DNA of 64,000 bases from an uncultured Gammaproteobacteria bacterium (GTDB lineage Bacteria > Pseudomonadota > Gammaproteobacteria > SZUA-140), in contig CAMYIG010000001.1 in NCBI GenBank assembly GCA_947258425.1, positions 866 to 64,865 of the forward strand, in the 5' to 3' direction. The translations under genes were made by a program, and so were the position numbers. This document shows, piece after piece, positions 8,334 through 50,845 of this stretch. The stretch's first letter is position 1; every line of letters begins with the position of its first letter. Under the pieces are notes generated by a model. That model searched no databases and was not told where the DNA came from. It was given only the letters and a program-made list of their open reading frames with translations.

Positions 8334-9332
8334 TCATTTTGATTGCCATAATCCAGTCAATTTGGATTGATGCGACTTCAATCCCCCCTCAAGCACTTCG
8401 ACCTTTTCTTCTAATGTGCACAGTCTTTGCTCCACATCAATCATCTTCTGGTTCACCTTATTATCTGCGCGATTATCCGCCCGACCATCCACATGGCTAG
8501 CCGAGTTCTCTGGCGCATAAGTAACCTCCCCCCGCAACTCAGCGGTCACCGCTTTAACGACTTCACTATCTATTTTATGTAGCTCCTCGAGATACCCAAA
8601 GAGCATCAGTCGATCACATAATGTATTGATTTTTCTTGGTGTACCCAAGGTATAGGCAAAAATTTCATCGTAGGCTGACGCATCAAACTCGGGGTCATTT
8701 TTCCATCCCGCAGCCTCCAGTCGATGAGTGATATACCCTTGAACCTCATCGCGCTCAAGCGCCTTCAGATAATAGGAAGCAATCACACGTTGGCGCAGCT
8801 GCTCCAGCCCTTCAGCCTGCAAGGTCTTAACAAACTCCCGCTGCCCGAGGAGAAAGATCTGCAAAAGCGCAGCGCCACCGGCCTGAAAGTTAGACAGCAT
8901 ACGTAGCTCTTCCAGAGATTTAAGCGGGATATTCTGCACCTCATCAATCACTAGCAAAACCCGTTTACCGAGGCGCGCCTGTTCCACAAAAAAGGTTTCA
9001 AGCGCCTTTAACAGTGATGCCTTGTCGAGCCCTTCATGGGATAGATCAAAAGCAGAGGCGACCATCCGTAACATGTCATCGGCCTCTAACTGCGTCGTCA
9101 CAATTTTGGCGGCAACGAGATTATCCTCGGTCAGATGATCGAACATATTCTGTACCAGCGTCGTCTTGCCGGTGCCAATATCCCCCATGATGACAATAAA
9201 ACCTTCACCCTGCGTAATCCCGTAACGCAAGTAAGACATGCCACGCTTATGGCCACGGCTATTGTAAAAAAAGCGCGCATTTGGGCTCAGCTGAAACGGC
9301 TTGGCATGCAGGTTATAAAATGACTCGTACAT
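8334..9332 (-). CDS. ExeA/MshM-like AAA ATPase; candidate PEP-CTERM-locus secretion ATPase subfamily
   Basis: N-terminus MYESFYNLHAKPFQLSPNARFFY, Walker A GDIGTGKTT, Walker B LLVIDEVQ and a C-terminal coiled-coil tail. Subfamily assignment (TIGR03015-like) is from memory of the family, not a search. Confidence 0.75.
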   Translation of the reverse strand: MYESFYNLHAKPFQLSPNARFFYNSRGHKRGMSYLRYGITQGEGFIVIMGDIGTGKTTLVQNMFDHLTEDNLVAAKIVTTQLEADDMLRMVASAFDLSHEGLDKASLLKALETFFVEQARLGKRVLLVIDEVQNIPLKSLEELRMLSNFQAGGAALLQIFLLGQREFVKTLQAEGLEQLRQRVIASYYLKALERDEVQGYITHRLEAAGWKNDPEFDASAYDEIFAYTLGTPRKINTLCDRLMLFGYLEELHKIDSEVVKAVTAELRGEVTYAPENSASHVDGRADNRADNKVNQKMIDVEQRLCTLEEKVEVLEGGLKSHQSKLTGLWQSK

Positions 9333-10886: not shown

Positions 10887-11537
10887 ATGATTAAGGCGCT
10901 TTTTCCCTCACAAGTTGTCACCGTCACGGCAACGCCTGCCATGTGGGATGGCAAACTCTACCCCGAAGAGGCCGCTTTCATCCAGAAAGCGGTCATTAAA
11001 CGGAGACGCGAATTCACTGCTGGTAGACTATGTGCAAAAGCGGCGTTAAAAGCATTGGGGGTCACCGGCTTTCCAGTGCTGTCAGGGGGAGAGCGTGAAC
11101 CACTCTGGCCACCCGGCATCACCGGTAGCATCTCCCATTGCGATGACTATTGCGGAGTCGCACTGGCGCGTCAAGCAACGCTCACAAGCATTGGGCTAGA
11201 CATTGAAACCATTAGACCGTTAGACGACGACCTCGAAGCGATGATCTGCACACCGCAGGAAATAACACGCGCTAACCTATCTCCACCACCCTCAGGCAGC
11301 AATTGGCAAAAATTTATATTCAGTGCCAAAGAGTCTGTCTATAAATCACTGTTTCCAGTCACGCGAATTTACCTGGATTTTCAAGACCTCGACATAACCT
11401 TCGACAGTGACAGGTTGCAATTTTCAGCCACTCTGCTCACCCAGCTTCCAACAGAATATAACCTGCCAGACACCCTGACTGGCCACTTCAGGTACAACGA
11501 AAGTCACATCTTTACCGGAATTTCACTATCCCAATAA
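10887..11537 (+). CDS. 4'-phosphopantetheinyl transferase (EntD/Sfp type)
   Basis: WPPGITGSISHC, GLDIE and FSAKESVYKS motifs. Converges on the end of the NRPS operon (2 nt gap). Confidence 0.85.
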   Translation: MIKALFPSQVVTVTATPAMWDGKLYPEEAAFIQKAVIKRRREFTAGRLCAKAALKALGVTGFPVLSGGEREPLWPPGITGSISHCDDYCGVALARQATLTSIGLDIETIRPLDDDLEAMICTPQEITRANLSPPPSGSNWQKFIFSAKESVYKSLFPVTRIYLDFQDLDITFDSDRLQFSATLLTQLPTEYNLPDTLTGHFRYNESHIFTGISLSQ

Positions 11538-12169: not shown

Positions 12170-13009
12170 TTAGTCTCTATTTAATTCGCGCGCATAAGCT
12201 TGCGCCATCCAGCCACTAATAGTCTCAATTAACTTTTCTTTATCTTTTCTCAGGATATAGGTGTGGTCTGATTCCGGAAAATAATTAACCTGTAGCTGGT
12301 CATTAAAATTCACGGCGCTGAACATATCCTTAAATTGTCCGGCATAATTATAGTCCTCATGGCCGCCACTGTAGACATACAACAGGTTTACTTTGCGCTC
12401 AACCAACTCGCGCAACTCTGCCTCGGTCTGTTGCTTTGGGGGTAATACCCAGAAGTAATCATCCTGACCTGGTCCATCGTCGACACCATCCCCTGAGGGT
12501 GAAATTAGACGTTTAATTCGGTTAAACCATCCACTCAACGAAAACAGACGGGCGCCATAGCGGCGCATCAGAAATGCAGGGGTACGATATGCGTAGCCGT
12601 CAAGAAAAATGGCACCGACCACTCGAGGGTCAATCACAGCCCCCTTATGCGCATTGGCAGCGCCGGTACATAACCCAAACAGGATGAACTTTTTGACGCC
12701 GTATTTACTCGTAAAGAAATCCATTGCAGCCTGAATATCACCAATGATCTGTTCTTCATAAGCACGCGTATCTTTATGCTTCTGGCTATCACCAATCCCA
12801 GATAGATCGAACCGAAAGGATCGCACACCCTGCACTGCTAAACGACGGGCTAATTCAACATGTAACCTAAAGGGGCCGACTCGATGGAGTAAGCCTGCAT
12901 TGAGCATAATAACGGCAGGCAACGTATCGTTAGCGACGGCCTCATCCACTTCGGTCGCAATGCCAACGAGGTCTTTATCCTGCCCAAAAGTAAATACGCG
13001 CTCCATCAC
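12170..13009 (-). CDS. Alpha/beta-hydrolase fold protein with a cysteine nucleophile elbow (GLCTG)
   Basis: AVIMLNAG, FDLSGIGDS, elbow FILFGLCTGAANA, and candidate acid/His residues (GGHED, ESDHTY). Start overlaps the upstream gene stop (ATGA). Candidate exosortase A-associated hydrolase family member. Confidence 0.7.
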   Translation of the reverse strand: MMERVFTFGQDKDLVGIATEVDEAVANDTLPAVIMLNAGLLHRVGPFRLHVELARRLAVQGVRSFRFDLSGIGDSQKHKDTRAYEEQIIGDIQAAMDFFTSKYGVKKFILFGLCTGAANAHKGAVIDPRVVGAIFLDGYAYRTPAFLMRRYGARLFSLSGWFNRIKRLISPSGDGVDDGPGQDDYFWVLPPKQQTEAELRELVERKVNLLYVYSGGHEDYNYAGQFKDMFSAVNFNDQLQVNYFPESDHTYILRKDKEKLIETISGWMAQAYARELNRD

Positions 13010-13788
13010 TTAGCACCCTCCGAAAGCATCATCACAATATCCTGCAATAATGTACTGAGTAGTAGTGCTGATTCGAGTTCTGATAACGCATCCCAATTGC
13101 CAGCGTCATCAATCACGCGGTATTCGACATCGGCACTCTGTAAACAATCGTAAAGCGCTTGATACTCGTCTTTAGCATCAGAACCTACTATAAATACCCG
13201 CTTTGCTTTCGCTAAAAAATCTTTTTTCAGATCTAATGCTTCAATCTCAGAACACATTTCCTCAGAAAATGAAAAACCCAACAGTTCATTTTCGCCTTCG
13301 CCCTGCCGAGGTACGCTAAAACGATCAGGGTCAGCCAACATCTGCTGATGCATAGACTTTTGTGACGCGATGTAGTCTCGTCCACTGACCACGGGATCCC
13401 AGAGCACGAGCTCTTCAATATTCAAAGACTCTATTGAGGACGCAATCACAGCCCCCAGGCGCAACCCCACTAATGACACTCGCGTATTGCCCGACAGGCT
13501 CTTTAACTCTTCCACCGCCATCGAGACATCTTCGCAGCTTTGTGTCAGACGCCACTCTTCTGACGAGCCAGATGAATCACCCGTTCCATAGTAATCAAAT
13601 CGAAGCACATGAAAACCGGCCTTCGCCAGCAGGTCGGCCAGGCGATTAAACATTTTAAATGACCGCATGTATTCCTGGCCGAATGGATAGCAAAGCACAA
13701 CACTCGTATCTCGTAAGTCACGAGATCTTGGCGGGTGATAGATGCCAAACAGCTGCTTATTGGAAGCGCCAAAAAAGAATGGATTCAT
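13006..13788 (-). CDS. Alpha/beta-hydrolase fold protein with Ser replaced by Arg at the elbow (GLRLG)
   Basis: VVLCYPFGQE, FDYYGTGDSSG, elbow VSLVGLRLGAVIA. No obvious C-terminal catalytic His. Candidate second member of the exosortase A-associated hydrolase pair. Confidence 0.65.
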   Translation of the reverse strand: MNPFFFGASNKQLFGIYHPPRSRDLRDTSVVLCYPFGQEYMRSFKMFNRLADLLAKAGFHVLRFDYYGTGDSSGSSEEWRLTQSCEDVSMAVEELKSLSGNTRVSLVGLRLGAVIASSIESLNIEELVLWDPVVSGRDYIASQKSMHQQMLADPDRFSVPRQGEGENELLGFSFSEEMCSEIEALDLKKDFLAKAKRVFIVGSDAKDEYQALYDCLQSADVEYRVIDDAGNWDALSELESALLLSTLLQDIVMMLSEGAK

Positions 13789-13929: not shown

Positions 13930-16900
13930 CTATTTATTGAGCAACCTATTTTTAATTTTATTAAAAAAACCGGGAGATGCCGCAGCTTTTCGCTCAACGT
14001 TCGCTGACGAATCGACCGATCGTTGTTGTTGCCCCCCTGTGTCCTGTATATCAGGCTTACTGTCCACATCAGGAAGCGAATGCGTTGCCGCAATGGCTCC
14101 CAGCGACTCCATCAATAAAACCCTTGGTGAAATCACAACCGCGGTCTCTTTCCGAATGCGTTCAATCACCTTCATCGACAACAATGAGTGCCCACCCAGA
14201 TCAAAAAAATTATCGTGCACACTCACTCGTTCAATACCCAGTGCTTCACACCACACGGTAGCAAGGTATTTTTCTGTCCCTGTTTCAGGGGAGACATACT
14301 CATCATTTTCATAACTATCACCAAAGGGCGCTGGTAAACGTTTCCGATCTAATTTACCGTTCGGTGTCACCGGAAAACCGTCCATTTCAACGATGTGCTG
14401 AGGCACCATATATTCGGGTAACAGGGCACGCAAGTGCGTCCTTATTTCTGTCACTGTGGCGCCTTCGCCTCGCTTATAAATAAGATAGGCCACCAGGCGA
14501 TGATCACCAGGACGATTTTCCCAGACGTTCACTACAGCTCGCTCAATGGCATCATGTTCGCTGAGCGCAGACTCAATCTCACCCAGCTCTATTCTAAAGC
14601 CTCGCACCTTTACCTGATTATCAATACGTCGCATGTACTCAACATTACCATCATCGTGATAGAACGCGAGGTCACCTGTGCGATAGAGTCGACTATTTTC
14701 ATCAAATGGATTTGGAACAAAACGCTCTGCCGTCAATTCTGGGCGATTCAGATAATCGCGCGCAAGGCCAGCGCCACCAATATAAATCTCACCCGGGACA
14801 CCAACAGGCACAGGAAGGAGATGCTCATCAAGCAGATAAATCTGCGTGTTTTCGATCGGTCGACCGATCAATACTGTTGCCTCATCCGCATCACGTTTCA
14901 CTTGATAACGCATCGACCATACTGTCGTTTCTGTCGGGCCATAGAGATTCCATAACTCATCGCATTTTTCAACAAGTTGGCTTGCCAGTTCACGCGGCAT
15001 TGCTTCACCACCGCATAATACCTTCAGGCCTGATGTGCCCTGCCAATCTGATTCCAGTAGTAAACGCCAGGTAATCGGGGTTGCCTGCATAACAGTGATA
15101 TTTTCACTGGCGATAAGCGCCAGTAGACGGGTGCCATCAGAAGCCGCATCACGACTTGCGATGACCGTTGTAGCACCGGTCGTCAGTGGCAAATAGAGTT
15201 CAAGTACTGCAATATCAAAAGAGATAGTGGTCACAGCAAGCAGACGATCAACTTCTGTCAAACCTGGCGCACGCCGCATCGCACAAAGAAAGTTGACCAC
15301 GGCACGGTGCGGCAGCGTCACTCCCTTGGGCTTTCCGGTTGAACCGGATGTATAAATCACGTAAGCAAGATCATCAGATTGACCTTGCTTTAGCGGGTTT
15401 CGATCATCTTCTGCAGCAATCTTCGACCAGTCACTATCGATAAAGACGGTGCGCCCCGCATAACCCGTCAGACGTTCTTTTAACGCCGCCTGAATCACCA
15501 CTAACGGGGCCTGACTATCGCTCAACATATATGCCAGACGTTCTGTTGGATACGCAGGATCAAGCGGCACGTAAGCGCCCCCTGCTTTCAAAATGCCCAA
15601 CAACCCCACCATCATATCCAGTGAGCGCTCAACACATATGCCGATTAGTTGGCCGGGCTCGACACCTGCTTTAATTAAATAATGCGCTAGCTGGTTTGCT
15701 CGCTTATTTAGTTCGGCATAACTTAAATGCTTATCCTCAAAAACGCATGCGGATTTATCGGGAAAACGTTCAACTTGCGCCTCGAAGAGCTCATGCAGCT
15801 TGCTTTCAGCAGGAAACACTACGTTTGTGTTGTTCCACTCATTAATAATAAGTGACCTCTGCTCATCATCAAGTAACGACAGTGTTGCCAATTTTGCATC
15901 AGGTTGCTCAACAACCCGCATGAGCAGCACCTCAAACAGTTTAACCAAACGTTCAATGGTGTGTGCCTCGAATATATCAGCATTATATGCTAGTGCACCT
16001 GAAATTCCATCCGCGCTATCAGACAACATTAAATCAAGGTCAAAATGAGCAGTACCTCTTTCAAATTGATATTCACTCACTTCCACGCCAGACAAAGGAA
16101 AGTTATCGCACAAGGTTTCATTATGAAGCATAAACATCACCTGAAACATTGAGGTATGATTCAATGCTCGATGATGAGGAATCTTCTCCAGAATACTTTC
16201 GAACGGAAGATCCTGATGCGAAAAACAATCGACAGTAGACTCAGCAACATGCTCGACAATATCTCTAAACGTTGAGTCTGATGAAAACTCTGTACGCATC
16301 ACCAGATTATTAGAAAAATCCCCGAACATACTATCTAACTCTGGTCGGCTGCGGACCGTCGGTGACATACCCGTTAAAATATCTTCCTGGTTAGTATAGC
16401 GATACAGCAGACACTGGAATGCAGATAACAGCGACATAAATAAAGTCGAACCTAACGTTCCGCTTAATATTTTAAGTTGCTGGGAAAGCGTCTTCGGCAA
16501 TAAAAACCGATGGGTCCTACCCTTAAATGACATCACTCTTGGCCGCGGATGATCAGTCGGTAGATCAAGCACCGTGTTCGCATCCTGTAGATAGGCTTTC
16601 CAGTACTCCAGCTGGTTATTCACCTCATTAGACGCCAGCCAGTACTTTTCCCATAATGCAAAGTCACGGTACTGCGCAATGAAATTATCACCAGCCCCAT
16701 CGCCTACAGGGTTAGAGCCATCCGTTTTATGCGCGTTATAAGTAGTACTTATCTCGTTAACAAGTAACCGTACAGAAAGACCATCCATTGCGAAATGATT
16801 CGTTGTCATGATGAACACATGCTCATCTTCCGCCAACTGAATAACCAACACCCGTAAGTTAATATCATTGGTAAGATCAAACGGCGTACTAATTTCAGCA

Positions 16901-17325
16901 TTCACCGTTTCGAGCAGTTGACGTTCTTGCGCCTCAGAGGAGATAGCCTTCAAATCATCAACGACCATGCTAAACAGCGTCGATGGCAACAACTTCTGAT
17001 AAAGTTCATCCTCGCCCTCTAAACAGGCAGTTCGTAACACTTCATGACGTTGTACTACCTGCTGAAGACTTTTCTCGAGAATTGTAAGATCTAACTCACC
17101 CTTGAGTCGCACTATAAAAGATTCATTATAAGCAGAGCTTGCAGGATCCATCTGATAGATAAACCAGAAACGTCGTTGCGCTGATGACAAAGGCACCATT
17201 ACATCTTCAGCAACACGTGGCAGCGGTAATTGTTTCAATCCAATCTCGATGTCATCCAGCATTACGTCAAATAATTCGAGCTGATCTGAAGAGAGCGCAT
17301 CCAGCGCTTGATATACATCCTTCAT
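13930..17325 (-). CDS. NRPS3: C-A(Gly-like)-T, no TE/R/terminal C domain
   Basis: - C domain about 15886-17208: LSSAQRRFWF, NHFAMDGLS.
- A domain about 14326-15828: LAYVIYTSGSTGKPKGV, NLYGPTETT, YRTGDL, PNGKLDRK.
- T domain about 14086-14298: FFDLGGHSLL.
- Then a 51 aa tail.
- Hand-derived code DILQLGLVW(K).
- The ATG overlaps the NRPS2 stop (ATGA). Confidence 0.92.
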   Translation of the reverse strand: MKDVYQALDALSSDQLELFDVMLDDIEIGLKQLPLPRVAEDVMVPLSSAQRRFWFIYQMDPASSAYNESFIVRLKGELDLTILEKSLQQVVQRHEVLRTACLEGEDELYQKLLPSTLFSMVVDDLKAISSEAQERQLLETVNAEISTPFDLTNDINLRVLVIQLAEDEHVFIMTTNHFAMDGLSVRLLVNEISTTYNAHKTDGSNPVGDGAGDNFIAQYRDFALWEKYWLASNEVNNQLEYWKAYLQDANTVLDLPTDHPRPRVMSFKGRTHRFLLPKTLSQQLKILSGTLGSTLFMSLLSAFQCLLYRYTNQEDILTGMSPTVRSRPELDSMFGDFSNNLVMRTEFSSDSTFRDIVEHVAESTVDCFSHQDLPFESILEKIPHHRALNHTSMFQVMFMLHNETLCDNFPLSGVEVSEYQFERGTAHFDLDLMLSDSADGISGALAYNADIFEAHTIERLVKLFEVLLMRVVEQPDAKLATLSLLDDEQRSLIINEWNNTNVVFPAESKLHELFEAQVERFPDKSACVFEDKHLSYAELNKRANQLAHYLIKAGVEPGQLIGICVERSLDMMVGLLGILKAGGAYVPLDPAYPTERLAYMLSDSQAPLVVIQAALKERLTGYAGRTVFIDSDWSKIAAEDDRNPLKQGQSDDLAYVIYTSGSTGKPKGVTLPHRAVVNFLCAMRRAPGLTEVDRLLAVTTISFDIAVLELYLPLTTGATTVIASRDAASDGTRLLALIASENITVMQATPITWRLLLESDWQGTSGLKVLCGGEAMPRELASQLVEKCDELWNLYGPTETTVWSMRYQVKRDADEATVLIGRPIENTQIYLLDEHLLPVPVGVPGEIYIGGAGLARDYLNRPELTAERFVPNPFDENSRLYRTGDLAFYHDDGNVEYMRRIDNQVKVRGFRIELGEIESALSEHDAIERAVVNVWENRPGDHRLVAYLIYKRGEGATVTEIRTHLRALLPEYMVPQHIVEMDGFPVTPNGKLDRKRLPAPFGDSYENDEYVSPETGTEKYLATVWCEALGIERVSVHDNFFDLGGHSLLSMKVIERIRKETAVVISPRVLLMESLGAIAATHSLPDVDSKPDIQDTGGQQQRSVDSSANVERKAAASPGFFNKIKNRLLNK

Positions 17326-20300
17326 TTCACGACTCCTTTTTGCTCAACTAAACTGCGCGCGCTCAGTTGGTCACTCACTTCCCCTTTCGACAACTGTTTA
17401 ATCCGTTCAATCAGCCCTATCACACGCGAGTTAACATCCTCTTTAATCGCTACATTATTTTCACCATTCCGATATATTGCGCCACCCAATAGTGAGTGCA
17501 CAAAATAATGCCGCTCTTCAACATCAAACAACGCTCTAACCTTGTCAAAGTTTGCACCACCAATCTGACAAACAGCCAAATCGTGCTCACGCGCAGATTC
17601 ATCAATAAGGTGTGCGATGATCCCTGTTTCGAGTTTAGCCAGATAAGTAGAATACTTACCATAAGATGGCGCAACGGCACCAAGATCAGTGACAAAAAAT
17701 AGTGAAAATGCAGCTTCATCATAGATAGGAGTATTAACATACGGGACATGAATCGCGCGACTGATCTGCGCATCCTTTGTTAACGTGACCAAACGATGTT
17801 CAATGGGATGATAATAATATGTGCCCGCAGGAATGCCTTCGATTCTTCCTGGTTTAACATGCAGATAAACCTGCGTAGCGTAAAGCCCACCAGGGGAGGA
17901 ATAAAGATACTTTGGTTTACCATCCACCTCTATCTGATAAAAACATGACAGAAAATCACTAAACTGATCAAAAGGGATACACTCCAGTGAAAAACGTCGA
18001 TGACTAAAACGGTTCGCATATTTTTTCCTGAACGCTTCATCATCCACTGGTTTTTTGAGTTGTAAAAACTCTTTGCCTTCATCATTTTTTCGTATACCGG
18101 GCTGCGAATTCTTAAATGCCTCTCGCTCCGCGGGGTCGCGTAACTGCTGATATGAGGCAATCAGTGCTTTGACGCCCGAAAGTTCGCCTTCATCCTCGAC
18201 CGTTTTTTCCTTGTTGTCCTGCGCGCTATTGCTACGACAATAATCAGCAATGGCATTGACACTCTGAAGACGAAATATCTCATCCATACGCGGCCGAAAA
18301 CCAAACATCTTCTCCAGTTGATTACCAATCTTCACCATATCAAGCGAATTGGCACCCATTGATATCAGGTTCGCTTCATTCGACAGGTTATCCATTGATA
18401 ACAGCTCACAGATCATCGCATTCAACTGCGTAACAATCTCAGAATTATTAGCGGAGAGTGCGCTCTCTGAAGGACTGTCCTGCGGCTCCGGAAGTGATTT
18501 TCGATCCACTTTTCCGTTACGTGTCAGTGGCAGCTCATCCAGCGTTATAAACATGGCAGGCACCATGTAGTCTGGAAGTCTGCTAGCGAGATGTTCACGC
18601 AATTTATTTTCATCGATGGCATATCCCGGCGCCTTAACGAGATAAGCCAGCAGTCGCTGTTTTCCCGTCTGCGCAACCGTTACAACAGCGCTTATCACTG
18701 ACTCATGCTGTTGCAGTGCAGCCTCTACTTCACCACACTCAATCCGCTGCCCCTGAATCTTTATCTGAAAATCGGTACGGCCGACAAATTGAATATTGCC
18801 ATCGGGGAGGTAACGTCCAAGATCGCCAGTACGGTAAATCCGTTCACCAGTCTCCGGATGTTTTACAAATTTTTCAGCGGTTTTCTGTTCGTCCTGCCAG
18901 TACCCCATCGCAACGCCGATGCCGGCGACACACATCTCACCAGCCACCCAGTCAGGACACGGCGCAAGCGCCTCATCAAGAATATAATAGCGAGTATTCG
19001 CGATCGGCTTTCCGTATGGGATGCTTTTCCACGTGGGGTCAATCTGCTCAACGGGATACCAGATATTCCAGAGTGTCGTCTCCGTCGGCCCACCCACACT
19101 CACCAGTTGCGCACCTGTTTCTTTTTTAAGCCGCGCTGGCAACCCCAGTGGAATCCAGTCCCCCCCCAGAAATGCAGTCCGTAGACTATCGGGCGCGGTA
19201 CCGGGGTGACTCTCTACGTAGCACAGCAGCATATCCATCATTGCCGGTACAGAATTCCAGATGGTGGGCCTAAACTTCTGCATCATATCCACCCAATGAG
19301 CCGGGTCTCGACGCTCTTCTGGATCGGGCATCACGATTGAGCCGCCAGCACCCAGCATGCCAAACATGTCATAAATCGACATGTCATGATGCAGTGCAGT
19401 GACCGCTAATACACGGTCATCCGAACCCACATTAAAACAGCGGTTGGTTTCAACGATGGCATTCACCACGCCTCGATGGTTTAACATCACCCCTTTCGGT
19501 GTTCCGGTCGAACCAGAGGTATAGATGACATAAGCAAGATCATCTGGGGTCTGCAAATGAGCTAATGGCCCATCATCATATTCAGCGATATCATCGCTAT
19601 CCACACATAGCAGGGTTAAACCTTCAGGCCAGTTAATTTTATCAACCAACCACGACTGCGTTAATACTAGTTCAACGCCACTATTTGCTAACAACTTGCA
19701 TAAGCGCTCGCTCGGCTGCAAGGCATCCATTGGCGCATAGGCAGCACCCGACTGCAGCACACCATAGGCCGCAACCGCTTGCTCCCATCCTTTATCCATT
19801 ACAATCGCGACCAGCTTATTCGGCATGGCGTTCAGTTCACGTAAGCGTCTTCCCCAGCGGTTTGCTAACCCCAATAACTCTCTATAATTTAATGTTCGTT
19901 GAGTGGTAATCACGGCATCACTATCACCGGCTGTTTCAGCATGCGCAATAAACAGGTCTTGCAGCAGCCCTTGTGGCACATCGCGCTGATTATCATTGAC
20001 CTGTGCTCGACGTATTTTCTGCGACTCAGGCAGTAATCTCGTCGTAATCTCAAGCCAGCTCGCCTGCCATGCAGATTGATCAGCGGCTAGCCACTCCAGT
20101 AGCTGAATATAGGCATGTCCCATATCCTCCTGCAGCCCATCCGGGAAAAGCTCGCTGACATAGTCCCAGTCAACACCTAAGACACCCTTATATTCATAAA
20201 TATGATTATCAAGCCAGACCTGCGGCGTCTGATTAACGGCAAAAGTGACATTACCAATCAATCTTGCCGCATTAACGGTATACGCACTCGTGCCATCGGG

Positions 20301-21503
20301 GGCCTGTGGTGCACCGGTAAACACCACCGGTTTCAGACTCTCAGAACCACTCTTACCCTGCGTTGAAAGCTCTCTCAAAATATCTACGCCAGTAAAATAG
20401 TTATGATCCAGGTCATTCCATAACTGCTGCTGCACCACTTTCGCCTCATCGAGAAAATGGGCCTTGTCACCAATATCGATATCCAGCAGGCTAAATGAAG
20501 CGGCCTCACCGACAATGTTGTTGACCTGAGGGTCGAGTGGAAAACGATTAAACTGAGGGATATTCAGACAGAAATTTCGACTTTGACTCCACATCGCAAT
20601 CACATAAGCGTATGCCGTTAGCAAAACCACAATGGGGGTGACACCACTTTGATTGCAGTGCTGTTTAATACTGTTCCAGCTAGTTGCGCCCAGTTTAAGG
20701 CCTAGCCGGGTAAAGCGTCCCTCGTCAACTTCCTGAGGTGTTTTGGCAAGCGGCAGATCTGGTGCTGCAGACATGCGATCAATGCGTTGCTTCCAGTAAT
20801 CGGCATCTGCTTTAAATTTACTTGATTTTTTTAACGCGCGCTCAGCAAATACATAATCTCTAAATGTCAGATTAAGCGGGGGCAATGGCTCATCAGGACG
20901 ATGATAAAGCTGCGCCCATTCGGTGAAAATCACCGTCAAACTCCAGCCATCTACAATCAGCGCATCGAAACCGATATGCAGCCGTAACAGTCCATCTCTC
21001 AATTGTGCCGCAGTAATGGTAAACAGTGGCCACTGGTCTGAAGGTAGCACCTGATGTGAAATATTGTATCGCAGCTCCGCCAACTTCTTCTCGCGCGCAC
21101 CTTCATCGTGCTGCGTAAGGTCGACATAATCTATTTTATAGTCGGGTGTCTCCTCTAAAATCCGCTGATCACCATCGCGACTGATCACAACCCGCATCAT
21201 TTCATGCCGCACTATAAGCTTACAAAACGCCTCATTTAAACGCGCATAGTCAAGTTCATCTTCAATTTCATGATAAGCATAGCCCGCGACTTTACCCATC
21301 TCAAATGCGCCACTGCGTCCAATCCAGTACGCCTGCTGAAGTTCAGTCAACGGAAAAGGATCATAACGCTGGGCAGGGTTCGCCGTGATTTTATCAGATG
21401 CGATGTCAATCTTTTCAGCCGCCTGCTTCTGCGCAAGCTTCTTGATTAATAAAGCTCGCTTTTCAGGAGTAAGCCCTTCTAGCCGTTTTTTAAGGTCTGT
21501 CAT
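17322..21503 (-). CDS. NRPS2: Cy-A(Cys-like)-T-Ox (heterocyclisation plus FMN-type oxidase, thiazole-forming architecture)
   Basis: - Cy domain about 20034-21362: FPLTELQQAYWIGR, and DALIVDGWS (DxxxxD in place of HHxxxDG).
- A domain about 18489-19976: LAYVIYTSGSTGTPKGV, HHDMSIYD, IWNSVPAMM, LGGDWIP, VGGPTETT.
- T domain about 18234-18446: ISMGANSLD.
- C-terminal nitroreductase/SagB-like Ox domain about 17469-18056: YSSPGGLYATQVYLHV...CQIGG. Confidence 0.9.
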   Translation of the reverse strand: MTDLKKRLEGLTPEKRALLIKKLAQKQAAEKIDIASDKITANPAQRYDPFPLTELQQAYWIGRSGAFEMGKVAGYAYHEIEDELDYARLNEAFCKLIVRHEMMRVVISRDGDQRILEETPDYKIDYVDLTQHDEGAREKKLAELRYNISHQVLPSDQWPLFTITAAQLRDGLLRLHIGFDALIVDGWSLTVIFTEWAQLYHRPDEPLPPLNLTFRDYVFAERALKKSSKFKADADYWKQRIDRMSAAPDLPLAKTPQEVDEGRFTRLGLKLGATSWNSIKQHCNQSGVTPIVVLLTAYAYVIAMWSQSRNFCLNIPQFNRFPLDPQVNNIVGEAASFSLLDIDIGDKAHFLDEAKVVQQQLWNDLDHNYFTGVDILRELSTQGKSGSESLKPVVFTGAPQAPDGTSAYTVNAARLIGNVTFAVNQTPQVWLDNHIYEYKGVLGVDWDYVSELFPDGLQEDMGHAYIQLLEWLAADQSAWQASWLEITTRLLPESQKIRRAQVNDNQRDVPQGLLQDLFIAHAETAGDSDAVITTQRTLNYRELLGLANRWGRRLRELNAMPNKLVAIVMDKGWEQAVAAYGVLQSGAAYAPMDALQPSERLCKLLANSGVELVLTQSWLVDKINWPEGLTLLCVDSDDIAEYDDGPLAHLQTPDDLAYVIYTSGSTGTPKGVMLNHRGVVNAIVETNRCFNVGSDDRVLAVTALHHDMSIYDMFGMLGAGGSIVMPDPEERRDPAHWVDMMQKFRPTIWNSVPAMMDMLLCYVESHPGTAPDSLRTAFLGGDWIPLGLPARLKKETGAQLVSVGGPTETTLWNIWYPVEQIDPTWKSIPYGKPIANTRYYILDEALAPCPDWVAGEMCVAGIGVAMGYWQDEQKTAEKFVKHPETGERIYRTGDLGRYLPDGNIQFVGRTDFQIKIQGQRIECGEVEAALQQHESVISAVVTVAQTGKQRLLAYLVKAPGYAIDENKLREHLASRLPDYMVPAMFITLDELPLTRNGKVDRKSLPEPQDSPSESALSANNSEIVTQLNAMICELLSMDNLSNEANLISMGANSLDMVKIGNQLEKMFGFRPRMDEIFRLQSVNAIADYCRSNSAQDNKEKTVEDEGELSGVKALIASYQQLRDPAEREAFKNSQPGIRKNDEGKEFLQLKKPVDDEAFRKKYANRFSHRRFSLECIPFDQFSDFLSCFYQIEVDGKPKYLYSSPGGLYATQVYLHVKPGRIEGIPAGTYYYHPIEHRLVTLTKDAQISRAIHVPYVNTPIYDEAAFSLFFVTDLGAVAPSYGKYSTYLAKLETGIIAHLIDESAREHDLAVCQIGGANFDKVRALFDVEERHYFVHSLLGGAIYRNGENNVAIKEDVNSRVIGLIERIKQLSKGEVSDQLSARSLVEQKGVVK

Positions 21504-21641: not shown

Positions 21642-24600
21642 TCATTCGTCTTCAAGCTCACCCAATAGCGCAAGCAACTCATCTTCGTTTACATTCTCCA
21701 GCATCATCTGTTCAATCTTGCTGGAAAAATCGACCAATCGAGGCGAAAGAAAGATCGCTTGAAGTGGAATATCAATCGCAAAGTCCTGTCGGATGCGTGT
21801 AATCAACTGCACCGCGATCAACGAATGCCCGCCAATCTCGAAGAAATTATCGTACAACCCCACCTGCTTGAGCCCCAGTAACGCCTGTAAAATAGTAGCG
21901 ACCTGAATCTCAACTTCGCTAGCAGGTGCGACATATTCTGCCTGAGTATCAATATTCCCTTGCTCCGGCACTGGGAGTTTTTTACGATTAATTTTTCCAT
22001 TCGGTAATAATGGCAATCCCGCTAGCACGACGTAATTTACGGGCACCATAAATTCAGGTAAATGTTGTCCCAGATAGTTGCGTAGCGCATTGATATTGAT
22101 GTCAGTGCCTGTGTCTGGCACCACATACGCAACAAGCTTTTTATTCCCGGGCTCATCTTCTCGCAGTAGCACAAGCGCGTCATTCACTTCGGTATTCTCT
22201 AACAGAAGCTTCTCGATCTCACCCAGCTCAATCCGATAGCCATGTAGCTTGACCTGATGGTCGATGCGCCCCATGAACTCCAGCCGCCCATCACGACCCA
22301 TGCAGACCAGGTCGCCCGTTCGATACATACGGTCATTTAAATCACCACTCACACTGTTTTTTACAAACTTTTCAGCAGTGAGCTCGGGGCGATTCAGATA
22401 ACCCCGTACCACGCCGTCACCGGCAATTACCAGTTCACCCGGCACACCCAGCGGCTGAAGTTGCATATTGTTATCCAGCACATAGGTCTGTGTATTCGCA
22501 ATCGGGGAGCCCAATGGAATATCTGCGTCTGCCTCATGTAAATGATACGTGGTTGACCAGATCGTCGTCTCAGTCGGCCCGTACATATTCGTCACTTGAC
22601 CTTTCACCAATGAACGCAGCTTTACTGCCAACTGACTCGAAAAGGCTTCACCGCCCACCATCATATGAGACAAGCATCCCAGTGCGTGATGCATCTGCTG
22701 GTCTGATGCCAGCATATTGGCCATCGTTGGCGTACATTGAAAATGCGTGACGTTGTGTCGCTCGATAAGTGCAGCGATGGAATAATCCTTATCCGCCCCA
22801 TCAGACTGCGGCGGGTTAGCCGCCTCCTTCACCTGGCTTAGATAATGGAGGTGGGCCAGTACTTTTTCGGTCTCGATGCCAAAATCGATCAGACAACCGA
22901 TCTCATCCACCCCTATTTCCTTGAGTTGATCTGCACGTTCAACGCATCGTTCAACATTCCCAAAGAGCCCGCTGTGGTTATAATAGCGATCAAACGCGAA
23001 GGCCAGCAGGCTATCTCTATCCTCATCAGAAATATTATTAAAAAACTCATCCATGGTCTGCTCTGTACCCTCGGATACCTGCTTCCACGCCGGGCTATGC
23101 CACGCGGCCGCTTTCACCAGAGAAACTGCACTTTCCAGATAGTCCATCATCGGCTGCTGTGCAACATCACGCACCTGCGCCTCATCATCGCCGATGAAGG
23201 TGTGTAGCATTAATGTGACTTGCCCATCACCTGCATGACCGGCCTCTTTCCAGGCGCTACGATAGAGCCGAATATTCTCTGCCACCTTTTCAATATCCTG
23301 TCCGAGCAGGTGCGTCAGCACATGTGCACCAATTGATCCAGCCTGTCGGAAGGTGTCAGGATTCACCGCAACCGTTACCCAAATTGGTAACTTTTCCTGA
23401 ATAGGTCTAGGGTAGGTGCGGACTTCAACATCGCCTTTCGGCCCCGCAAACGTGACAGCCTCACCTTTCCATAATTGCTGGATAGTCTCAACGGAATCAA
23501 ACATGATCTCTTTTGCGCGCGCATGATTCTCAGGCTTGATCACAAAATCATTCGGCTGCCAGCCGGGCGCAATCGAAAGCCCCGCACGGCCATTGGAAAG
23601 GTTATCCACCACCGACCACTCTTCTGCGATGCGAATAGGGCTATGCAGTGGCACCACACAACTGCCCGCACGAATACCGATGTTTTGCGTAGTGGCCGCC
23701 AGTGCGGCACCGATGACTGAGGGGTTAGGGTACAGTCCGCCAAAGGCACCGAAATGTCGCTCAGGTGTCCATAGCGCTTCGAAGCCATTTTTGTCGGCGT
23801 ATTTAGCGCTTTCGAGCAGTAACTTATACTTATCTGCCTCGCGAGATGCCTCGTCTTTTACAAAATTCCAGTAAAAAAGACTAAAGGCAATCGGCTGAGC
23901 GGGGTATCGTGTCGCCACTTCCCCAGCCTTCAGGTCATCACCGGCGTAGAGCACCAGTTTAAACCCTCGACAGAGACTCCAGAAAATCTCAAGCACGGAG
24001 ATATCAAACGATATACTGGTCACAGCCAACCACACACCCGGGGAATCATGCGCAATGCGCTCATCCATGCCTGCGAAGAAATTCACCACATTACGGTGTT
24101 CGACCATCACCCCTTTGGGACGCCCGGTCGAGCCCGAAGTATATATCACATAAGCCAGACTCGATGACGCGCACGGGATTTCAAGATTATTATCGCTCTC
24201 GACATCGATTCGACTTCGCTCAAGATCAACCTGCAACAACTTTTCACCGGGCAGATAATTTGCGTAATCAGACTGGGTAACTACCAACGCCAGCTCTGCG
24301 TCATCGGCCATATAAACCAAACGATCTTTGGGATAAGTGGGATCCAGTGGCACATAGGCCGCGCCTGTTTTCCACGTTGCCAATAGCGCGATCACCATAT
24401 CAAAGGAACGATCCAACATCACACCGACCAGATCATCTACACCCACGCCATGTTTTACCAGATAGTGCGCCAGCTGATTTGCGCGAGCATTCAACTCATG
24501 ATAACTGAGGCTGTCATTGTGAAATGCCAGCGCGGATGTATCCGGTGTAGACACTACTTGTTGTTCAAACAGCTGAAATACACATCGATTTTCAGGGTAT

Positions 24601-27882: not shown

Positions 27883-28617
27883 TTAGTGCGGTGAGTTACT
27901 AGACCGCCAGAATGTCACGGCCTGTGACATCCCCTCAAATACATGAAATCCCGGATATTGTTCAACATTCCATGTATCATATTTTTCTAGCCAACCGACC
28001 GATGCAAGTACTTTATCGTGCACTGGTGTGACATACACCAGTCGAAAAGCACGAGGATTCTTATCCAGCGAGCAGCGAATCGCCGCAAGTACTTCTAACA
28101 CTGTAATTTCCCCAAAGGGGTTGAACATAAACACGACGGTTACATCGTCAAAATCATACGCCTGAGCCAACCCTTCACGAAGCTCGATGTCAGCCTTCCG
28201 CCCGCGCAATTTCTGAGCATTTAAACGCGCAATGGGTAAAAAACTGCTGTTATATTCAAGCCCAATCACGCGCCCAACGTCTGTTCGCGCAGCGACGCTG
28301 AGTGTTCGCCCTTTACCACATCCCAGATCGACAAAGACATCTCGAGCATCTAAAGCGAGATGTTTCATGATGTCATGCAACAACAGGTACGGCGTTGCTT
28401 CATAACGAAAGCCGTCCTGTGGCATACCGATATCAACGATTGCCTCGGTATTGATCCCTAAATAGCGCTCCCAAAACTTGTCATGGAGTCTTATTTCATA
28501 GGGTGCAGCCCCAATTGCCTCACCCTTTCTAAAAATATAACGCGCCAGAAGAACATCTTTGTTTTTGATAATGAATCTGGGTAACTTCACAAAAAGAAGT
28601 TTCAGCTGGTTTAACAA
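27883..28617 (-). CDS. Class I SAM-dependent methyltransferase, first gene of the NRPS operon
   Basis: Motif I VFVDLGCGKGR, post-I VIGLEYN, motif II-like VVFMFNPF. Located 67 nt upstream of NRPS1 on the same strand. Confidence 0.75.
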   Translation of the reverse strand: MLNQLKLLFVKLPRFIIKNKDVLLARYIFRKGEAIGAAPYEIRLHDKFWERYLGINTEAIVDIGMPQDGFRYEATPYLLLHDIMKHLALDARDVFVDLGCGKGRTLSVAARTDVGRVIGLEYNSSFLPIARLNAQKLRGRKADIELREGLAQAYDFDDVTVVFMFNPFGEITVLEVLAAIRCSLDKNPRAFRLVYVTPVHDKVLASVGWLEKYDTWNVEQYPGFHVFEGMSQAVTFWRSSNSPH

Positions 28618-36070: not shown

Positions 36071-36073
36071 GGG

Positions 36074-37243: not shown

Positions 37244-37244
37244 C

Positions 37245-40493: not shown

Positions 40494-40535
40494 AAAATTT
40501 CAGACTTAATGCACCATCGCTCACTGTTCATCCCT

Positions 40536-41177
40536 TCACCCTTTCAATAATTCCGAGACTGTCACTGACTGCAGCCCACTCGCCGCGAGCTGATCTAATA
40601 ATGATTTGAGTGCCAATGGGGTATATGGTGTCTTATCGTGCAAAAGAGCAATATCACCAGCGATTAGTGGATGTTGCTCAAAAAAATCCGTAATCTCATC
40701 AGCAGAGGTTACTTTATAGTCCTCTGGATCCACATTCCATAATATGGCTTTCTGCCTTTTAGCTAAAATATACCGAAGTAATCCCAATGTAATCACCCCT
40801 TTAGGCGGCCGAAAAAGTGACCGGCTCTCAGGCGCCTGGTCGTCAGACCTAAGTAGCTCCCACACATCATCAAGTTCATCGCTTATCGCATGGTAGCCCA
40901 ATAAGCTGAACTCGGGGTGCGTCATAGAATGGTTACCTAATTCATGGCCTCGTGCTTCAATCATTTTCGTTATTTCAGGATATTTCTTAACCTGCTCTCC
41001 CACTACGAAAAATGTTGCCTTCATACCCGCCTCATCCAGCACATCCAGCACCTGTTCTGTATAGGGGTGGAATGGACCGTCATCAAAGGTCAGCGCGACC
41101 TTTTCAGCACCTGTTGTTGAACGGCAAACAAGAAAATGAGACAAGATAACTTCTTTTACCCATTTCTTAAGGTTCAT
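40536..41177 (-). CDS. Polysaccharide deacetylase (CE4/NodB)
   Basis: VALTFDDGPFHPYTEQVLDVLDEAGMKATFFVVG, GHELGNHSMTHP, RPPKG and LLHD. ATG at 41177 (MNLKKW...) preferred over the longer ORF start at 41249, which would lie deep inside the upstream gene. Confidence 0.85.
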   Translation of the reverse strand: MNLKKWVKEVILSHFLVCRSTTGAEKVALTFDDGPFHPYTEQVLDVLDEAGMKATFFVVGEQVKKYPEITKMIEARGHELGNHSMTHPEFSLLGYHAISDELDDVWELLRSDDQAPESRSLFRPPKGVITLGLLRYILAKRQKAILWNVDPEDYKVTSADEITDFFEQHPLIAGDIALLHDKTPYTPLALKSLLDQLAASGLQSVTVSELLKG

Positions 41178-42387: not shown

Positions 42388-42390
42388 ACA

Positions 42391-46293: not shown

Positions 46294-46294
46294 A

Positions 46295-50842: not shown

Positions 50843-50845
50843 TTC

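Follow-up and report, generated by a model that had tools for sequence, protein, structure and literature searches.

Two overlapping genes in an exopolysaccharide/exosortase locus close a peptide-assembly-line operon, in the usual place of the thioesterase (TE), and probably unload its product. They lie in the 64,000-nucleotide stretch of gammaproteobacterial DNA that we analyzed as a whole (the window), and we call the upstream protein ArgP and the downstream protein CysP. We estimate a probability of about 0.55 for the explanation that fits best, namely, that the missing TE of a four-module NRPS is replaced by a two-part chain-release module made up of ArgP and CysP. Within this module ArgP is predicted to be a noncatalytic adaptor subunit in the TE position and CysP the catalytic subunit. 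Judging from homologues and their gene neighborhoods, the Arg/Cys pair is widespread.

Results

An overlapping gene pair with nonserine nucleophile elbows

An earlier note on this DNA had described a translationally coupled pair of alpha/beta-fold proteins at 12170-13788. Both open reading frames lie exactly there on the minus strand, joined by a GTGATG overlap (Table 1). The junction reads ...GCT AAG TGA TGG..., and the TGA of ArgP overlaps CysP by 4 nt if the latter starts at GTG, or by 1 nt with the alternative ATG start at 13006, which gives a protein of 278 aa and corresponds to the NCBI call. A GGAGGG sequence is found ~10 nt 5′ of the CysP start; together with the stop/start overlap, this argues for translational coupling of ArgP and CysP. 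Overlaps of -4 or -1 nt recur in 52 of 75 related pairs. Inspection of the N termini by eye revealed no signal peptide in either protein.

Table 1 Location of the gene pair, of its key codons, and of the surrounding NRPS and XrtA genes in the window
Feature	Position	Strand	Properties	Basis
XrtA/PEP-CTERM system-associated ATPase	8334..9332	minus		TIGR03015, 363.3 bits (cut-off 324.5)
Sfp-type 4′-phosphopantetheinyl transferase (PPTase)	10887..11537	plus	primes carrier domains	Pfam 4PPT_N, ACPS
CysP (downstream protein)	12170..13009	minus	279 aa from GTG, alpha/beta-hydrolase fold, Cys114 elbow (GLCTG), His249	ORF
His249 codon CAC of CysP	12263..12265	minus	within ESDHTY	sequence read, conservation
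Cys114 codon TGT of CysP	12668..12670	minus		sequence read
ArgP stop/CysP start overlap GTGATG	13004..13009	minus	ArgP TGA inside CysP start	
ArgP (upstream protein)	13006..13788	minus	260 aa, alpha/beta-hydrolase fold, Arg110 at elbow (GLRLG), no catalytic His	ORF
Arg110 codon CGC of ArgP	13459..13461	minus	nucleophile-elbow position	sequence read, alignments
Terminal NRPS module C-A-T	13930..17325	minus	1131 aa	Pfam Condensation, AMP-binding, PP-binding (residues 1020-1079)
NRPS module Cy-A-T-Ox	17322..21503	minus	1393 aa, predicted thiazole or oxazole formation	
NRPS A-T-C-A(luciferase-like monooxygenase insert)-T	21642..27815	minus	2057 aa, loading module and module 2	Pfam
SAM-dependent methyltransferase	27883..28617	minus	head of NRPS operon	Pfam Methyltransf_25/11
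XrtA/PEP-CTERM exopolysaccharide system	34904..63927	minus		NCBIfam matches above curated cut-offs

The elbow motifs VSLVGLRLGAVIA of ArgP and FILFGLCTGAANA of CysP were both found as previously given. Profile alignments with solved serine hydrolases matched Arg110 and Cys114 with the Ser of GLSMG in 9pjb and 7q4h, and the AlphaFold (AF2) models showed strand 103-109, R110, and helix 111-117 in ArgP (pLDDT 92.1) and strand 108-113, C114, and helix 115-126 in CysP (pLDDT 90.2). Structure models and alignment thus place both residues on the strand-turn-helix elbow, in agreement with the claim that neither elbow carries a serine. In Pfam, ArgP scored above the gathering threshold for Hydrolase_4 (36.8 bits; cut-off, 27) and above the cut-off for Acyl_transf_2/LuxD (PF02273; 24.8 bits; cut-off, 20.3). 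CysP matched Abhydrolase_1 (34.4 bits; cut-off, 25.8) and Hydrolase_4 (29.8 bits). The thioesterase family PF00975 was absent from the matches at E ≤ 1 for both proteins. Among the 50 PDB matches listed by Foldseek were feruloyl esterases and TTL lipase, at about E 1e-12.

Analysis of 145 representatives of clusters at 50% identity showed R at the Arg110 position in 141, G in 3, and K in 1, and never Ser, Cys, or Asp; among genomic ArgP domains, R was present in 74 of 75. Arg is not universal, Gly being found in the Shinella and Rhizobium fusions, and these Gly and Lys replacements indicate that the constant feature of the ArgP elbow is the absence of a nucleophile. The catalytic His reported as missing from the C-terminal half of the upstream protein is missing throughout the family, whose alignment has no conserved His column in that half; Trp232 is conserved near the expected place of the His loop. 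ArgP, in which Arg takes the place of the nucleophile and no His is conserved, therefore lacks a catalytic triad. Nevertheless, a near-invariant Cys33 adjoins the elbow, so that ArgP may not be inert.

Neither Cys114 nor His249 varies among 87 CysP homologues or in TIGR03100-type, Variovorax, and Azospirillum relatives, and His249 aligns with the GDH(T) His of 9pjb. Of the acid and His partners proposed earlier, the His of ESDHTY is therefore retained. In contrast, the GGHED stretch is not conserved; the family consensus in its place is SGGxxxxYNY, which rules out its acid as a family feature. Asp137, located after strand 130-136 of the CysP model, is only a candidate for the acid.

The Cys elbow had also been likened to those of PHA synthases and dienelactone-type hydrolases. 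CysP shares a GxCxG-type elbow and a C-terminal His with these enzymes, and a second subunit is likewise part of class III PhaC. This kinship was not borne out: CysP reached 19.2 bits against DLH (PF01738), in the elbow region only and below the gathering score of 21, no PhaC family appeared in the NCBIfam or Pfam tables for ArgP and CysP, and neither PhaC nor dienelactone hydrolase was among the 50 Foldseek matches listed.

A large sister family of TIGR03100 and TIGR03101

The best NCBIfam matches were TIGR03101 for ArgP (103.9 bits; cut-off, 202.75; profile positions 2-143 of 266) and TIGR03100 for CysP (81.4 bits; cut-off, 168.45; positions 6-159 of 274), i.e., about half of each curated cut-off and confined to the N-terminal half of each model. 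The earlier note had identified the pair with these two families while naming scores below both cut-offs as grounds for giving up that assignment, and both scores are below. What stands is the relationship, supported by the best matches, the shared gene order, and the XrtA locus; the assignment to the families themselves does not. By sequence comparison, ArgP and CysP belong to a large sister family outside both equivalog families. This family comprises 1,024 clusters at 50% identity (E ≤ 1e-30), has matches in hundreds of species-representative genomes from many phyla, and is covered by no curated model. All of 131 family representatives match TIGR03101 (best E value, 1.8e-38), and none reaches its cut-off.

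The order of ArgP and CysP is that of the hydrolase-2-like and hydrolase-1 genes in Sphingomonas-type XrtA loci, and ArgP displays a membership trait in overlapping a distantly related second hydrolase, CysP, with XrtA in the window. We sampled 40 sequences, Sphingomonas-centered and closely related to a TIGR03100 protein named by PGAP; NCBI calls many of the 40 "hydrolase 1, exosortase A system-associated." The elbow Cys (G-N-C-D-A) was present in all 40 and the aligned His in 39, the remaining sequence being gapped. Cys114 and His249 of CysP share alignment columns with this Cys and His (GNCDA...DSHS). Against TIGR03100, a Sphingomonas-type protein (L095) scored 197.8 bits, versus 81.4 for CysP. 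The partners of two TIGR03100-type proteins carry an elbow Arg (SIRGG and SIRSG) with a TIGR03101 score of only 33-38 bits. The Arg and Cys/His pattern extends to fused Arg-Cys proteins and to pairs of the Sphingomonas type in which the second gene scores above the TIGR03100 cut-off. For TIGR03101 sequences above the cut-off, plasmid tblastn searches (ArgP, CysP, and TIGR03100-type queries), an exhaustive search of representatives, and inspection of neighbors of TIGR03100-type proteins all returned subthreshold relatives only. The window pair resembles TIGR03100/TIGR03101 in gene order and XrtA location, shares the elbow Cys and C-terminal His of TIGR03100-type relatives and the elbow Arg of their partners, and differs by its low scores and by an NRPS in place of ACP, ligase, and decarboxylase.

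The pair follows a TE-less NRPS within an XrtA locus

The window contains a complete XrtA/PEP-CTERM system, in keeping with the earlier description of an exosortase locus. Its main block encodes PrsT, XrtA-EpsI, PrsR, PrsK, and the TIGR03013 priming transferase, along with glycosyltransferases, deacetylases, Wzx-like and O-antigen-ligase-like proteins, an outer-membrane protein, a tyrosine kinase, a chain-length determinant, and an export protein. Curated cut-offs were passed by XrtA (233.9 bits; cut-off, 208), PrsK, PrsR, PrsT, TIGR03013, the chain-length determinant, the tyrosine kinase, the export and outer-membrane proteins, and the ATPase of the XrtA system. The position of the TIGR03015 ATPase gene sets the block formed by the NRPS and the pair inside the XrtA locus.

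The terminal NRPS protein stops ~50 aa past its T domain, with no Pfam match thereafter, and the Pfam scan detected no TE, reductase, or terminal C domain in the four modules. The 2057-aa NRPS protein, which carries the luciferase-like monooxygenase insert, matched TIGR04020 with 484 bits. No promoter- or terminator-like site was listed in the 141-nt gap between NRPS and ArgP, and a promoter/terminator scan of 11400-14100 gave counts no better than those of shuffled sequences.

An AMP-forming ligase and a PLP decarboxylase had been named as usual neighbors of such hydrolase pairs. They are indeed seen in Sphingomonas-type loci, along with an ACP: the set of ACP, TIGR03098 ligase, and TIGR03099 PLP decarboxylase is present in two Sphingomonas loci (L010 and L095), and a set resembling it occurs in Shinella (L093). 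Among the window ORFs scanned there was neither a decarboxylase nor a stand-alone ACP, and TIGR03098 matched NRPS A domains only, below its cut-off. The proposal that an NRPS has replaced the ligase therefore holds for the window, where a TE-less four-module NRPS is found instead of ACP, ligase, and decarboxylase, but not as a one-off event, since NRPS/PKS adjacency is recurrent.

Related loci link the pair to carrier proteins and to exopolysaccharide genes

The ArgP/CysP pair is kept in 75 of 80 related loci, and 3 others (L040, L047, and L064) have an orphan CysP, for which relaxed thresholds revealed no ArgP either. Fusions of ArgP to CysP, with the domains in the order of the genes, occur in 6 of the 145 representatives and also in Azospirillum, Mycetohabitans, Caballeronia, Shinella, Rhizobium, and B. 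cenocepacia. These fusions strongly back the idea, advanced earlier, of a catalytic Cys and a noncatalytic Arg protein acting together.

NRPS/PKS genes adjoin family members in 37-39 of the 80 loci, immediately upstream of the pair and often with overlapping stop and start. In 11 loci ArgP is fused to the assembly line itself (C-A-T-ArgP) and begins 9-26 aa after the last T domain. Where the upstream NRPS/PKS gene is separate, it ends 0-68 aa past its carrier domain and lacks a TE (28 of 28 loci). A PPTase is encoded within 10 kb in 12 of the 80 loci; in L003 and L005 its gene neighbors the pair. We found three carrier-loading systems beside the module: NRPS/PKS with PPTase; ACP, AMP-ligase, and PLP decarboxylase; and ACP with an amino acid-[ACP] ligase.

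XrtA-type genes are present within 10 kb in 35 of the 80 loci, and in 30 of these the pair is located between tyrosine kinase/outer-membrane protein genes and glycosyltransferase genes. These 30 XrtA-embedded loci have no NRPS nearby, and a crude carrier-domain HMM detected no carrier protein within 10 kb. This rules out that a carrier protein always adjoins the pair and suggests that carrier-bound donors may not be universal. No exopolysaccharide (EPS) gene was found in the 10-kb flanks of 25 NRPS-adjacent loci, flanks that the NRPS itself fills in large part. In Kangiellaceae, the genes for a single C-A-T-ArgP module and CysP immediately precede the XrtA genes for the priming transferase and for export, and fused homologues are found in EPS clusters of Variovorax and Shinella and in Bep-type loci of B. 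cenocepacia. Not every XrtA locus has the pair: the Vibrio alfacsensis and Alteromonas mediterranea XrtA plasmids have none annotated up to 20 kb from their XrtA genes.

Discussion

According to the two-part release module, ArgP would be a catalytically dead alpha/beta-hydrolase paralogue, held directly behind the last T domain physically or by docking, that acts as an adaptor binding the carrier protein and its substrate. In the putative heterodimer, Cys114 of CysP, activated by His249, would attack the peptidyl-S-pantetheine thioester to form a peptidyl-S-Cys intermediate, which would then be resolved by an acceptor. Since ArgP and CysP both appear to be cytoplasmic proteins, and since the family keeps its association with polysaccharide loci even without an NRPS, the acceptor is most likely, though with less certainty, an intermediate of the XrtA-dependent exopolysaccharide in the cytoplasm, which would react through a hydroxyl or an amino group; a lipid-linked repeat unit and an activated sugar are candidates, with water (simple hydrolysis) as the fallback. 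We infer transfer instead of hydrolysis, and the module is probably an off-loading acyl-transferase/thioesterase that feeds polysaccharide modification. Of the acceptors suggested earlier, EPS and PEP-CTERM protein are unlikely in their mature or exported forms because neither ArgP nor CysP has a signal peptide.

NRPS/PKS TE domains share the alpha/beta-hydrolase fold with the pair. Like a type I TE, ArgP stands directly behind the last carrier domain with no other release domain present, and the trans-acting fungal DcsB (PDB 7d78/7d79) was among the fold matches. Unlike in TEs, the function would be split over two polypeptides: the protein in the TE position has Arg for Ser/Cys and no His, and the Cys-His residues are on the separate CysP. 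A parallel may also be drawn with LuxD, which takes an acyl group from acyl carrier protein. ArgP exceeds the Pfam threshold of this family and gave a fold match to 1tht at E 2e-11; however, LuxD is a single active Ser-His-Asp enzyme.

The missing TE of the window NRPS would also be explained if the pair were a split trans-acting thioesterase that simply frees the peptide by hydrolysis as a secondary metabolite, its position in the XrtA locus having no mechanistic meaning. The fusion of ArgP at the TE position in 11 loci, the lack of a TE in every upstream assembly line, the 25 plus 8 NRPS/PKS loci without an EPS gene within 10 kb, and the esterases, lipases, and thioesterases that are the closest solved folds among the matches listed are all compatible with this reading, to which we nonetheless grant a modest chance. 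It does not explain why 30 loci hold the pair in XrtA EPS operons without an NRPS or carrier protein within 10 kb, why fused homologues belong to EPS clusters, or why the Kangiellaceae module directly precedes XrtA priming and export genes; in addition, an acyl-enzyme formed on Cys points more often to transfer than to hydrolysis, a consideration from general enzymology that is suggestive only. Those same 30 loci, and the Bep cluster with Bcam1334 and no obvious carrier system, would suit an EPS enzyme unrelated to the NRPS, such as an esterase/de-O-acylase or an acyl-CoA-dependent O-acyltransferase acting on the polysaccharide, with the NRPS a separate neighbor. We consider this improbable, given the NRPS/PKS genes immediately upstream in nearly half of the loci, the 11 covalent T-ArgP fusions, and the ACP and ligase that are always found in TIGR03100-type and Shinella loci; moreover, proteins without signal peptides cannot act on exported EPS.

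Type II TEs are stand-alone alpha/beta hydrolases encoded beside NRPS genes, and the pair might likewise have a proofreading role, freeing T domains from acyl groups that are mis-primed or have stalled, while release occurs by another route. This is very improbable, as neither the window NRPS nor any of the 28 related assembly lines has another release domain, ArgP is fused specifically behind the terminal T domain, PF00975 is unmatched in the Pfam scan, and type II TEs are not built from two proteins, one of them a dead subunit. Returning to the release module, a bolder version of it is that the module grafts peptide, aminoacyl, or acyl groups made by NRPS, PKS, or ACP systems onto the lipid-linked XrtA repeat unit. 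ArgP would then be a new NRPS terminal domain that hands the chain to a Cys transferase, and the resulting peptide-decorated EPS might even provide exosortase A with its nucleophilic acceptor for PEP-CTERM proteins. This version is speculative, and we regard its chance of being right as small.

If the release module is correct, an Arg domain in the TE position that recruits a Cys-His enzyme represents a new way to end an NRPS/PKS assembly line, one that would be missed by genome-mining tools seeking TE, R, or terminal C domains. For exosortase biology, it offers a testable role for hydrolase 1/2, namely, to transfer acyl or peptidyl groups to a glycan intermediate in the cytoplasm, and Cys114, His249, Arg110, and Cys33 are named as targets for mutation. 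A curated model for this large family would improve annotation.

Literature searches combining exosortase, nonribosomal peptide, hydrolase, and exopolysaccharide yielded nothing, and the 2006 PEP-CTERM paper makes no mention of hydrolase 1/2. The only family member that we found mentioned is Bcam1334, a TIGR03100-like hypothetical protein (hydrolase) in the B. cenocepacia Bep EPS cluster needed for biofilm (PMC3584217). The B. cenocepacia gene identified here encodes a ~595-aa Arg-domain/Cys-domain fusion (GVRAG ... GICSG ... DHS), and from the gene order in PMC3584217 we infer that it is Bcam1334. It differs from the window pair in uniting both domains in one protein and in that no adjoining carrier-protein system was seen. 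Located in an experimentally studied biofilm-polysaccharide cluster, where it is followed by a glycosyltransferase gene, this fused homologue provides a workable genetic system.

The gene pair and its locus

The window holds a complete XrtA (exosortase A)/PEP-CTERM system, which fits the earlier note's reading of the region as an XrtA locus, with all members above the curated cut-offs: XrtA-EpsI, PrsK, PrsR, PrsT, the TIGR03013 priming transferase, the export protein, the chain-length determinant, the tyrosine kinase, the outer-membrane protein and the ATPase. Between the ATPase gene and a glycosyltransferase block lies an NRPS operon comprising a methyltransferase, A-T-C-A(luciferase-like monooxygenase insert)-T and C-A-T, followed by ArgP, an alpha/beta-hydrolase-fold protein, its partner CysP, and a membrane-anchored orphan; an Sfp-type PPTase is encoded on the opposite strand. 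No thioesterase, reductase or terminal condensation domain was present in the window NRPS, and the window ORFs that were scanned yielded neither a PLP decarboxylase nor a stand-alone ACP or small ligase. The orphan had no Pfam or NCBIfam match and, among the loci examined, occurs only in two MAGs with genes identical to those of the window.

ArgP and CysP are real genes. More than 1,400 homologues of each were found in a 90%-clustered protein collection, and two metagenome-assembled genomes at NCBI (GCA_945787585.1 and GCA_947259125.1) carry identical copies of both. Their junction reads ...GCT AAG TGA TGG..., with the ArgP stop inside the CysP start codon region and GGAGGG approximately 10 nt upstream. 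The motifs reported in the earlier note, VSLVGLRLGAVIA and FILFGLCTGAANA, were found in the sequence exactly as written.

Coordinates of the features discussed (window positions unless a locus is named)
Feature	Position	Strand	Remarks
ATPase of the XrtA system	8334-9332
200-aa orphan, N-terminal membrane anchor	11540-12142	minus	27 nt downstream of CysP
CysP	12170-13009	minus	279 aa; NCBI start is the ATG one codon on, 278 aa (database protein P0001)
His249 codon of CysP, within ESDHTY	12265-12263	minus	sequence read
Cys114 codon of CysP	12670-12668	minus	sequence read
ArgP	13006-13788	minus	260 aa
Arg110 codon of ArgP	13461-13459	minus	sequence read
Residues 44-48 of ArgP	13645-13659	minus
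Cys33 codon of ArgP	13690-13692	minus
Terminal NRPS gene	13930-17325	minus
C-terminal NRPS peptide	13933-13971	minus	GFFNKIKNRLLNK
408-aa protein, PF13480 (Acetyltransf_6, GNAT) domain	29255-30481	plus	just beyond NRPS operon
PPTase homologue, Dyella MAG	L074 2914-3684	minus	just upstream of XrtA export gene
1,103-aa "alpha/beta fold hydrolase," Rhizobium sp. NLR16a plasmid p3	L094 9574-12885

An arginine and a cysteine at the nucleophile elbow

The family profiles of both proteins matched solved serine hydrolases of the Hydrolase_4/feruloyl-esterase group (9pjb, 7q4h, 8b4u). In these alignments the Ser of GLSMG fell on Cys114 of CysP and on Arg110 of ArgP, and the His of the GDH(T) motif fell on His249 of CysP. 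In the AlphaFold models (pLDDT 92.1 for ArgP and 90.2 for CysP), Arg110 is placed between strand 103-109 and helix 111-117, Cys114 between strand 108-113 and helix 115-126, and His249 in a loop past strand 239-244. Two independent lines, sequence alignment and structure prediction, thus locate Arg and Cys at the elbow, as first read from the sequence. Foldseek matches in the PDB included esterases, lipases, the acyl-ACP transferase LuxD (1tht) and the trans-acting thioesterase DcsB; the likeness of CysP to PHA synthases or dienelactone hydrolases suggested earlier was not borne out, neither type being among the 50 PDB matches listed.

ArgP lacks both nucleophile and His, and CysP has an invariant Cys-His pair at the canonical positions. 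Cys114 and His249 were invariant in 87 aligned CysP homologues, and they recur in a homologue from Variovorax as well as in a fusion protein of Azospirillum, there in the C-terminal domain. The GGHED motif put forward as the source of the acid is not conserved in CysP homologues, and Asp137, past strand 130-136 and at least 90% conserved in the family, is replaced by Asn in a Sphingomonas TIGR03100 protein (read by eye), so that Asp137 is at most a candidate acid.

An exhaustive HMMER search with ArgP retrieved 9,502, 5,440 and 1,024 clusters (50% identity) at E values of ≤1e-3, ≤1e-10 and ≤1e-30, respectively. The elbow residue was Arg in 141 of the 145 best cluster representatives, Gly in 3 and Lys in 1, and never Ser, Cys or Asp; among 75 domains from species-representative genomes it was Arg in 74 and Lys in 1. 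The family alignment contains no conserved His column in the C-terminal half, which upholds the earlier claim that the upstream protein has no C-terminal catalytic His. Trp232 is conserved near the place expected for the His loop, and Asp131 is part of a WDP motif located past strand 123-130. Directly past strand 28-33, an LCxP motif contributes the near-invariant Cys33, which is co-conserved with Arg110 in 138 of the 145 representatives. ArgP is without a classical triad and may perform other chemistry; the seemingly dead subunit may have a role requiring the Cys33 thiol. At positions 44 and 48, the window protein has Phe and Asn where the family has His (93%) and Arg (85%), a substitution shared with database protein P0121, which is 89 to 90% identical to it.

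Recurrence of the pair in other genomes

CysP relatives were encoded in at least 563 stretches in a scan of species-representative genomes, and the best 80 of these loci were annotated by local BLAST and HMM. They span Gammaproteobacteria, Myxococcota, Acidobacteriota, Gemmatimonadota, Planctomycetota, Bacteroidota and others. The two alpha/beta-fold proteins are paired, translationally coupled and repeatedly fused together: an ArgP domain is found directly upstream of CysP in 75/80 loci, where 25 pairs show a stop/start overlap of -4 nt and another 27 one of -1 nt. Among the five remaining loci, two are interrupted by contig ends and three (L040, L047 and L064) encode an orphan CysP; relaxing the HMM thresholds brought up no ArgP domain upstream of these, and neither NRPS nor XrtA genes could be recognised within 10 kb.

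NRPS and/or PKS genes immediately precede the pair in 37 to 39 of the 80 loci. ArgP is repeatedly fused behind the terminal carrier domain of assembly lines that otherwise have no release function. In the 11 C-A-T-ArgP fusions it begins 9 to 26 residues past the T domain, the exact thioesterase position, and where the upstream NRPS/PKS gene is separate, it ends 0 to 68 residues past a carrier domain (28/28 cases). Single-module C-A-T-ArgP proteins of approximately 1,340 to 1,380 aa followed by CysP were found in L028 and L059, where an acyl-CoA-dehydrogenase-like (ACAD-like) gene comes first, in L043, and in the Kangiellaceae loci L071 and L075, where the XrtA genes for the priming transferase, export, chain length and kinase come directly after them. 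In Variovorax, two NRPS genes and then a PPTase gene precede the Arg protein and the Cys protein, in that order, and Wza/Wzc and a sugar transferase come next.

XrtA-type genes lie within 10 kb in 35/80 loci. In 30 of these (Luteibacter, Dyella, Rhodanobacter and relatives) the EPS operon itself contains the pair: genes for export, chain length, the kinase and a porin-like protein come first, then ArgP and CysP, then more EPS genes. In these loci NRPS/PKS genes are absent, and no carrier protein could be detected within 10 kb. The PPTase homologue of the Dyella MAG, which likewise has no carrier protein within 10 kb, hints at a carrier system elsewhere in such genomes. Weak relatives (~20% identity) of the window's 408-aa GNAT protein follow ArgP-CysP in the Luteibacter and Dyella XrtA operons.

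On plasmids and chromids a single fusion protein of approximately 600 aa joins the two domains, with their order unchanged. The Azospirillum and Mycetohabitans fusions adjoin an ACP, an ACAD-like gene, an amino acid-[ACP] ligase, DUF1839 and a GH2 mannosidase; Cupriavidus CH34 has a candidate fusion in a like neighbourhood, by ORF pattern only. The Shinella fusion adjoins EPS genes, an ACP, an AMP-ligase and a PLP enzyme, and the Caballeronia fused gene is beside none of the neighbours named so far. The B. cenocepacia fused gene, upstream of a glycosyltransferase, very likely corresponds to Bcam1334 in the Bep biofilm-polysaccharide cluster, described only as a TIGR03100-like hypothetical hydrolase (PMC3584217). 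The N-domain elbow is Gly rather than Arg in the Shinella and Rhizobium fusions; the constant theme is a first domain without nucleophile followed by a Cys-His second domain. The module recurs beside three different carrier-protein loading systems and beside polysaccharide genes.

A Woeseiaceae MAG locus (L027) has both forms: an Arg-Cys fusion of the amino acid-[ACP] ligase type, accompanied by an ACP, an ACAD-like gene, DUF1839 and GH2, is immediately followed by a split ArgP/CysP pair adjoining an NRPS. The Rhizobium protein of 1,103 aa carries an unexplained N-terminal extension of ~520 aa ahead of its Gly-elbow and Cys domains; its gene is part of an amino acid-[ACP] ligase cluster with flanking GT4 glycosyltransferases.

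Relation to the exosortase-associated hydrolases

The pair had been assigned to TIGR03101 and TIGR03100 (hydrolases 2 and 1, exosortase A system-associated). These models are indeed the best hits, in the same order, but strict membership does not hold: ArgP scored 103.9 bits against TIGR03101 (cut-off 202.75; profile positions 2-143 of 266) and CysP 81.4 bits against TIGR03100 (cut-off 168.45; positions 6-159 of 274). The same best hits, all below cut-off, were obtained for every relative tested (the Rhodanobacter and Variovorax pairs, the partner in L003, and the Azospirillum and Shinella fusions), and 0/131 ArgP-family representatives reached the TIGR03101 cut-off. The window pair therefore belongs to a large family that is sister to the exosortase-associated pair and has no curated model.

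A Sphingomonas parapaucimobilis plasmid and one metagenome contig provided reference loci that have the accessory gene set. The order in these is ACP, hydrolase-2-like gene and hydrolase 1, with a divergent AMP-ligase and PLP decarboxylase, beside XrtA export genes. Like the window pair, they combine a Cys/His hydrolase 1 with an Arg-elbow partner (SIRGG, SIRSG). Among 40 sampled relatives of a protein that PGAP names "hydrolase 1, exosortase A system-associated," all had the elbow Cys (GNCDA) and 39 the His, one being gapped. No sequence passing TIGR03101 itself was obtained; the Arg elbows in the reference loci are those of hydrolase-2-like partners.

A proposed two-part off-loading module

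We consider it somewhat better than an even bet (probability about 0.55) that ArgP and CysP form a two-part off-loading module acting on the T-bound product. ArgP would dock the carrier domain and/or bind pantetheine phosphate or an anionic acceptor via Arg110, and CysP would accept the chain as a thioester on Cys114 and then hand it on. The acceptor would be cytoplasmic (a lipid-linked repeat unit, an activated sugar or water), because the donor is cytoplasmic and no signal peptide was seen in the N-termini of either protein, read by eye. If the pair off-loads, transfer to a glycan-pathway acceptor is roughly twice as probable as plain hydrolysis. The EPS-embedded loci favour a glycan; no carrier protein was detected within 10 kb in those loci, and a carrier-bound donor may not apply everywhere.

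The "hydrolase 1/2" genes of XrtA loci are recorded as hypothetical equivalogs in TIGRFAMs/NCBIfam; in the literature searched they were mentioned only in a table (PMC3584217), and not in the 2006 PEP-CTERM paper. Neither the Cys and Arg elbows nor the pseudo-TE fusion nor the sister family linked to NRPS/PKS was found described in that literature. The pair bears on NRPS chain release and on the open question of exosortase-associated chemistry, and offers clear experimental handles. N-acyl amino acid synthases, reportedly linked to exosortase loci by Craig et al. in 2011 (cited in PMC6602434), provide a precedent for acyl-amino-acid chemistry in such loci, although the enzyme differs.

The terminal NRPS gene of the window continues for approximately 50 residues past its T domain and ends in a basic amphipathic peptide, which may serve as a docking peptide for ArgP/CysP. 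Comparable tails (LLGKIKTKIRM, LIGRLKSKVFSK, ILSKIRNLFAK, GIKRIFKKIFKS and others) close the terminal NRPS genes of the related loci L017, L018, L020, L048, L069, L084 and L089.
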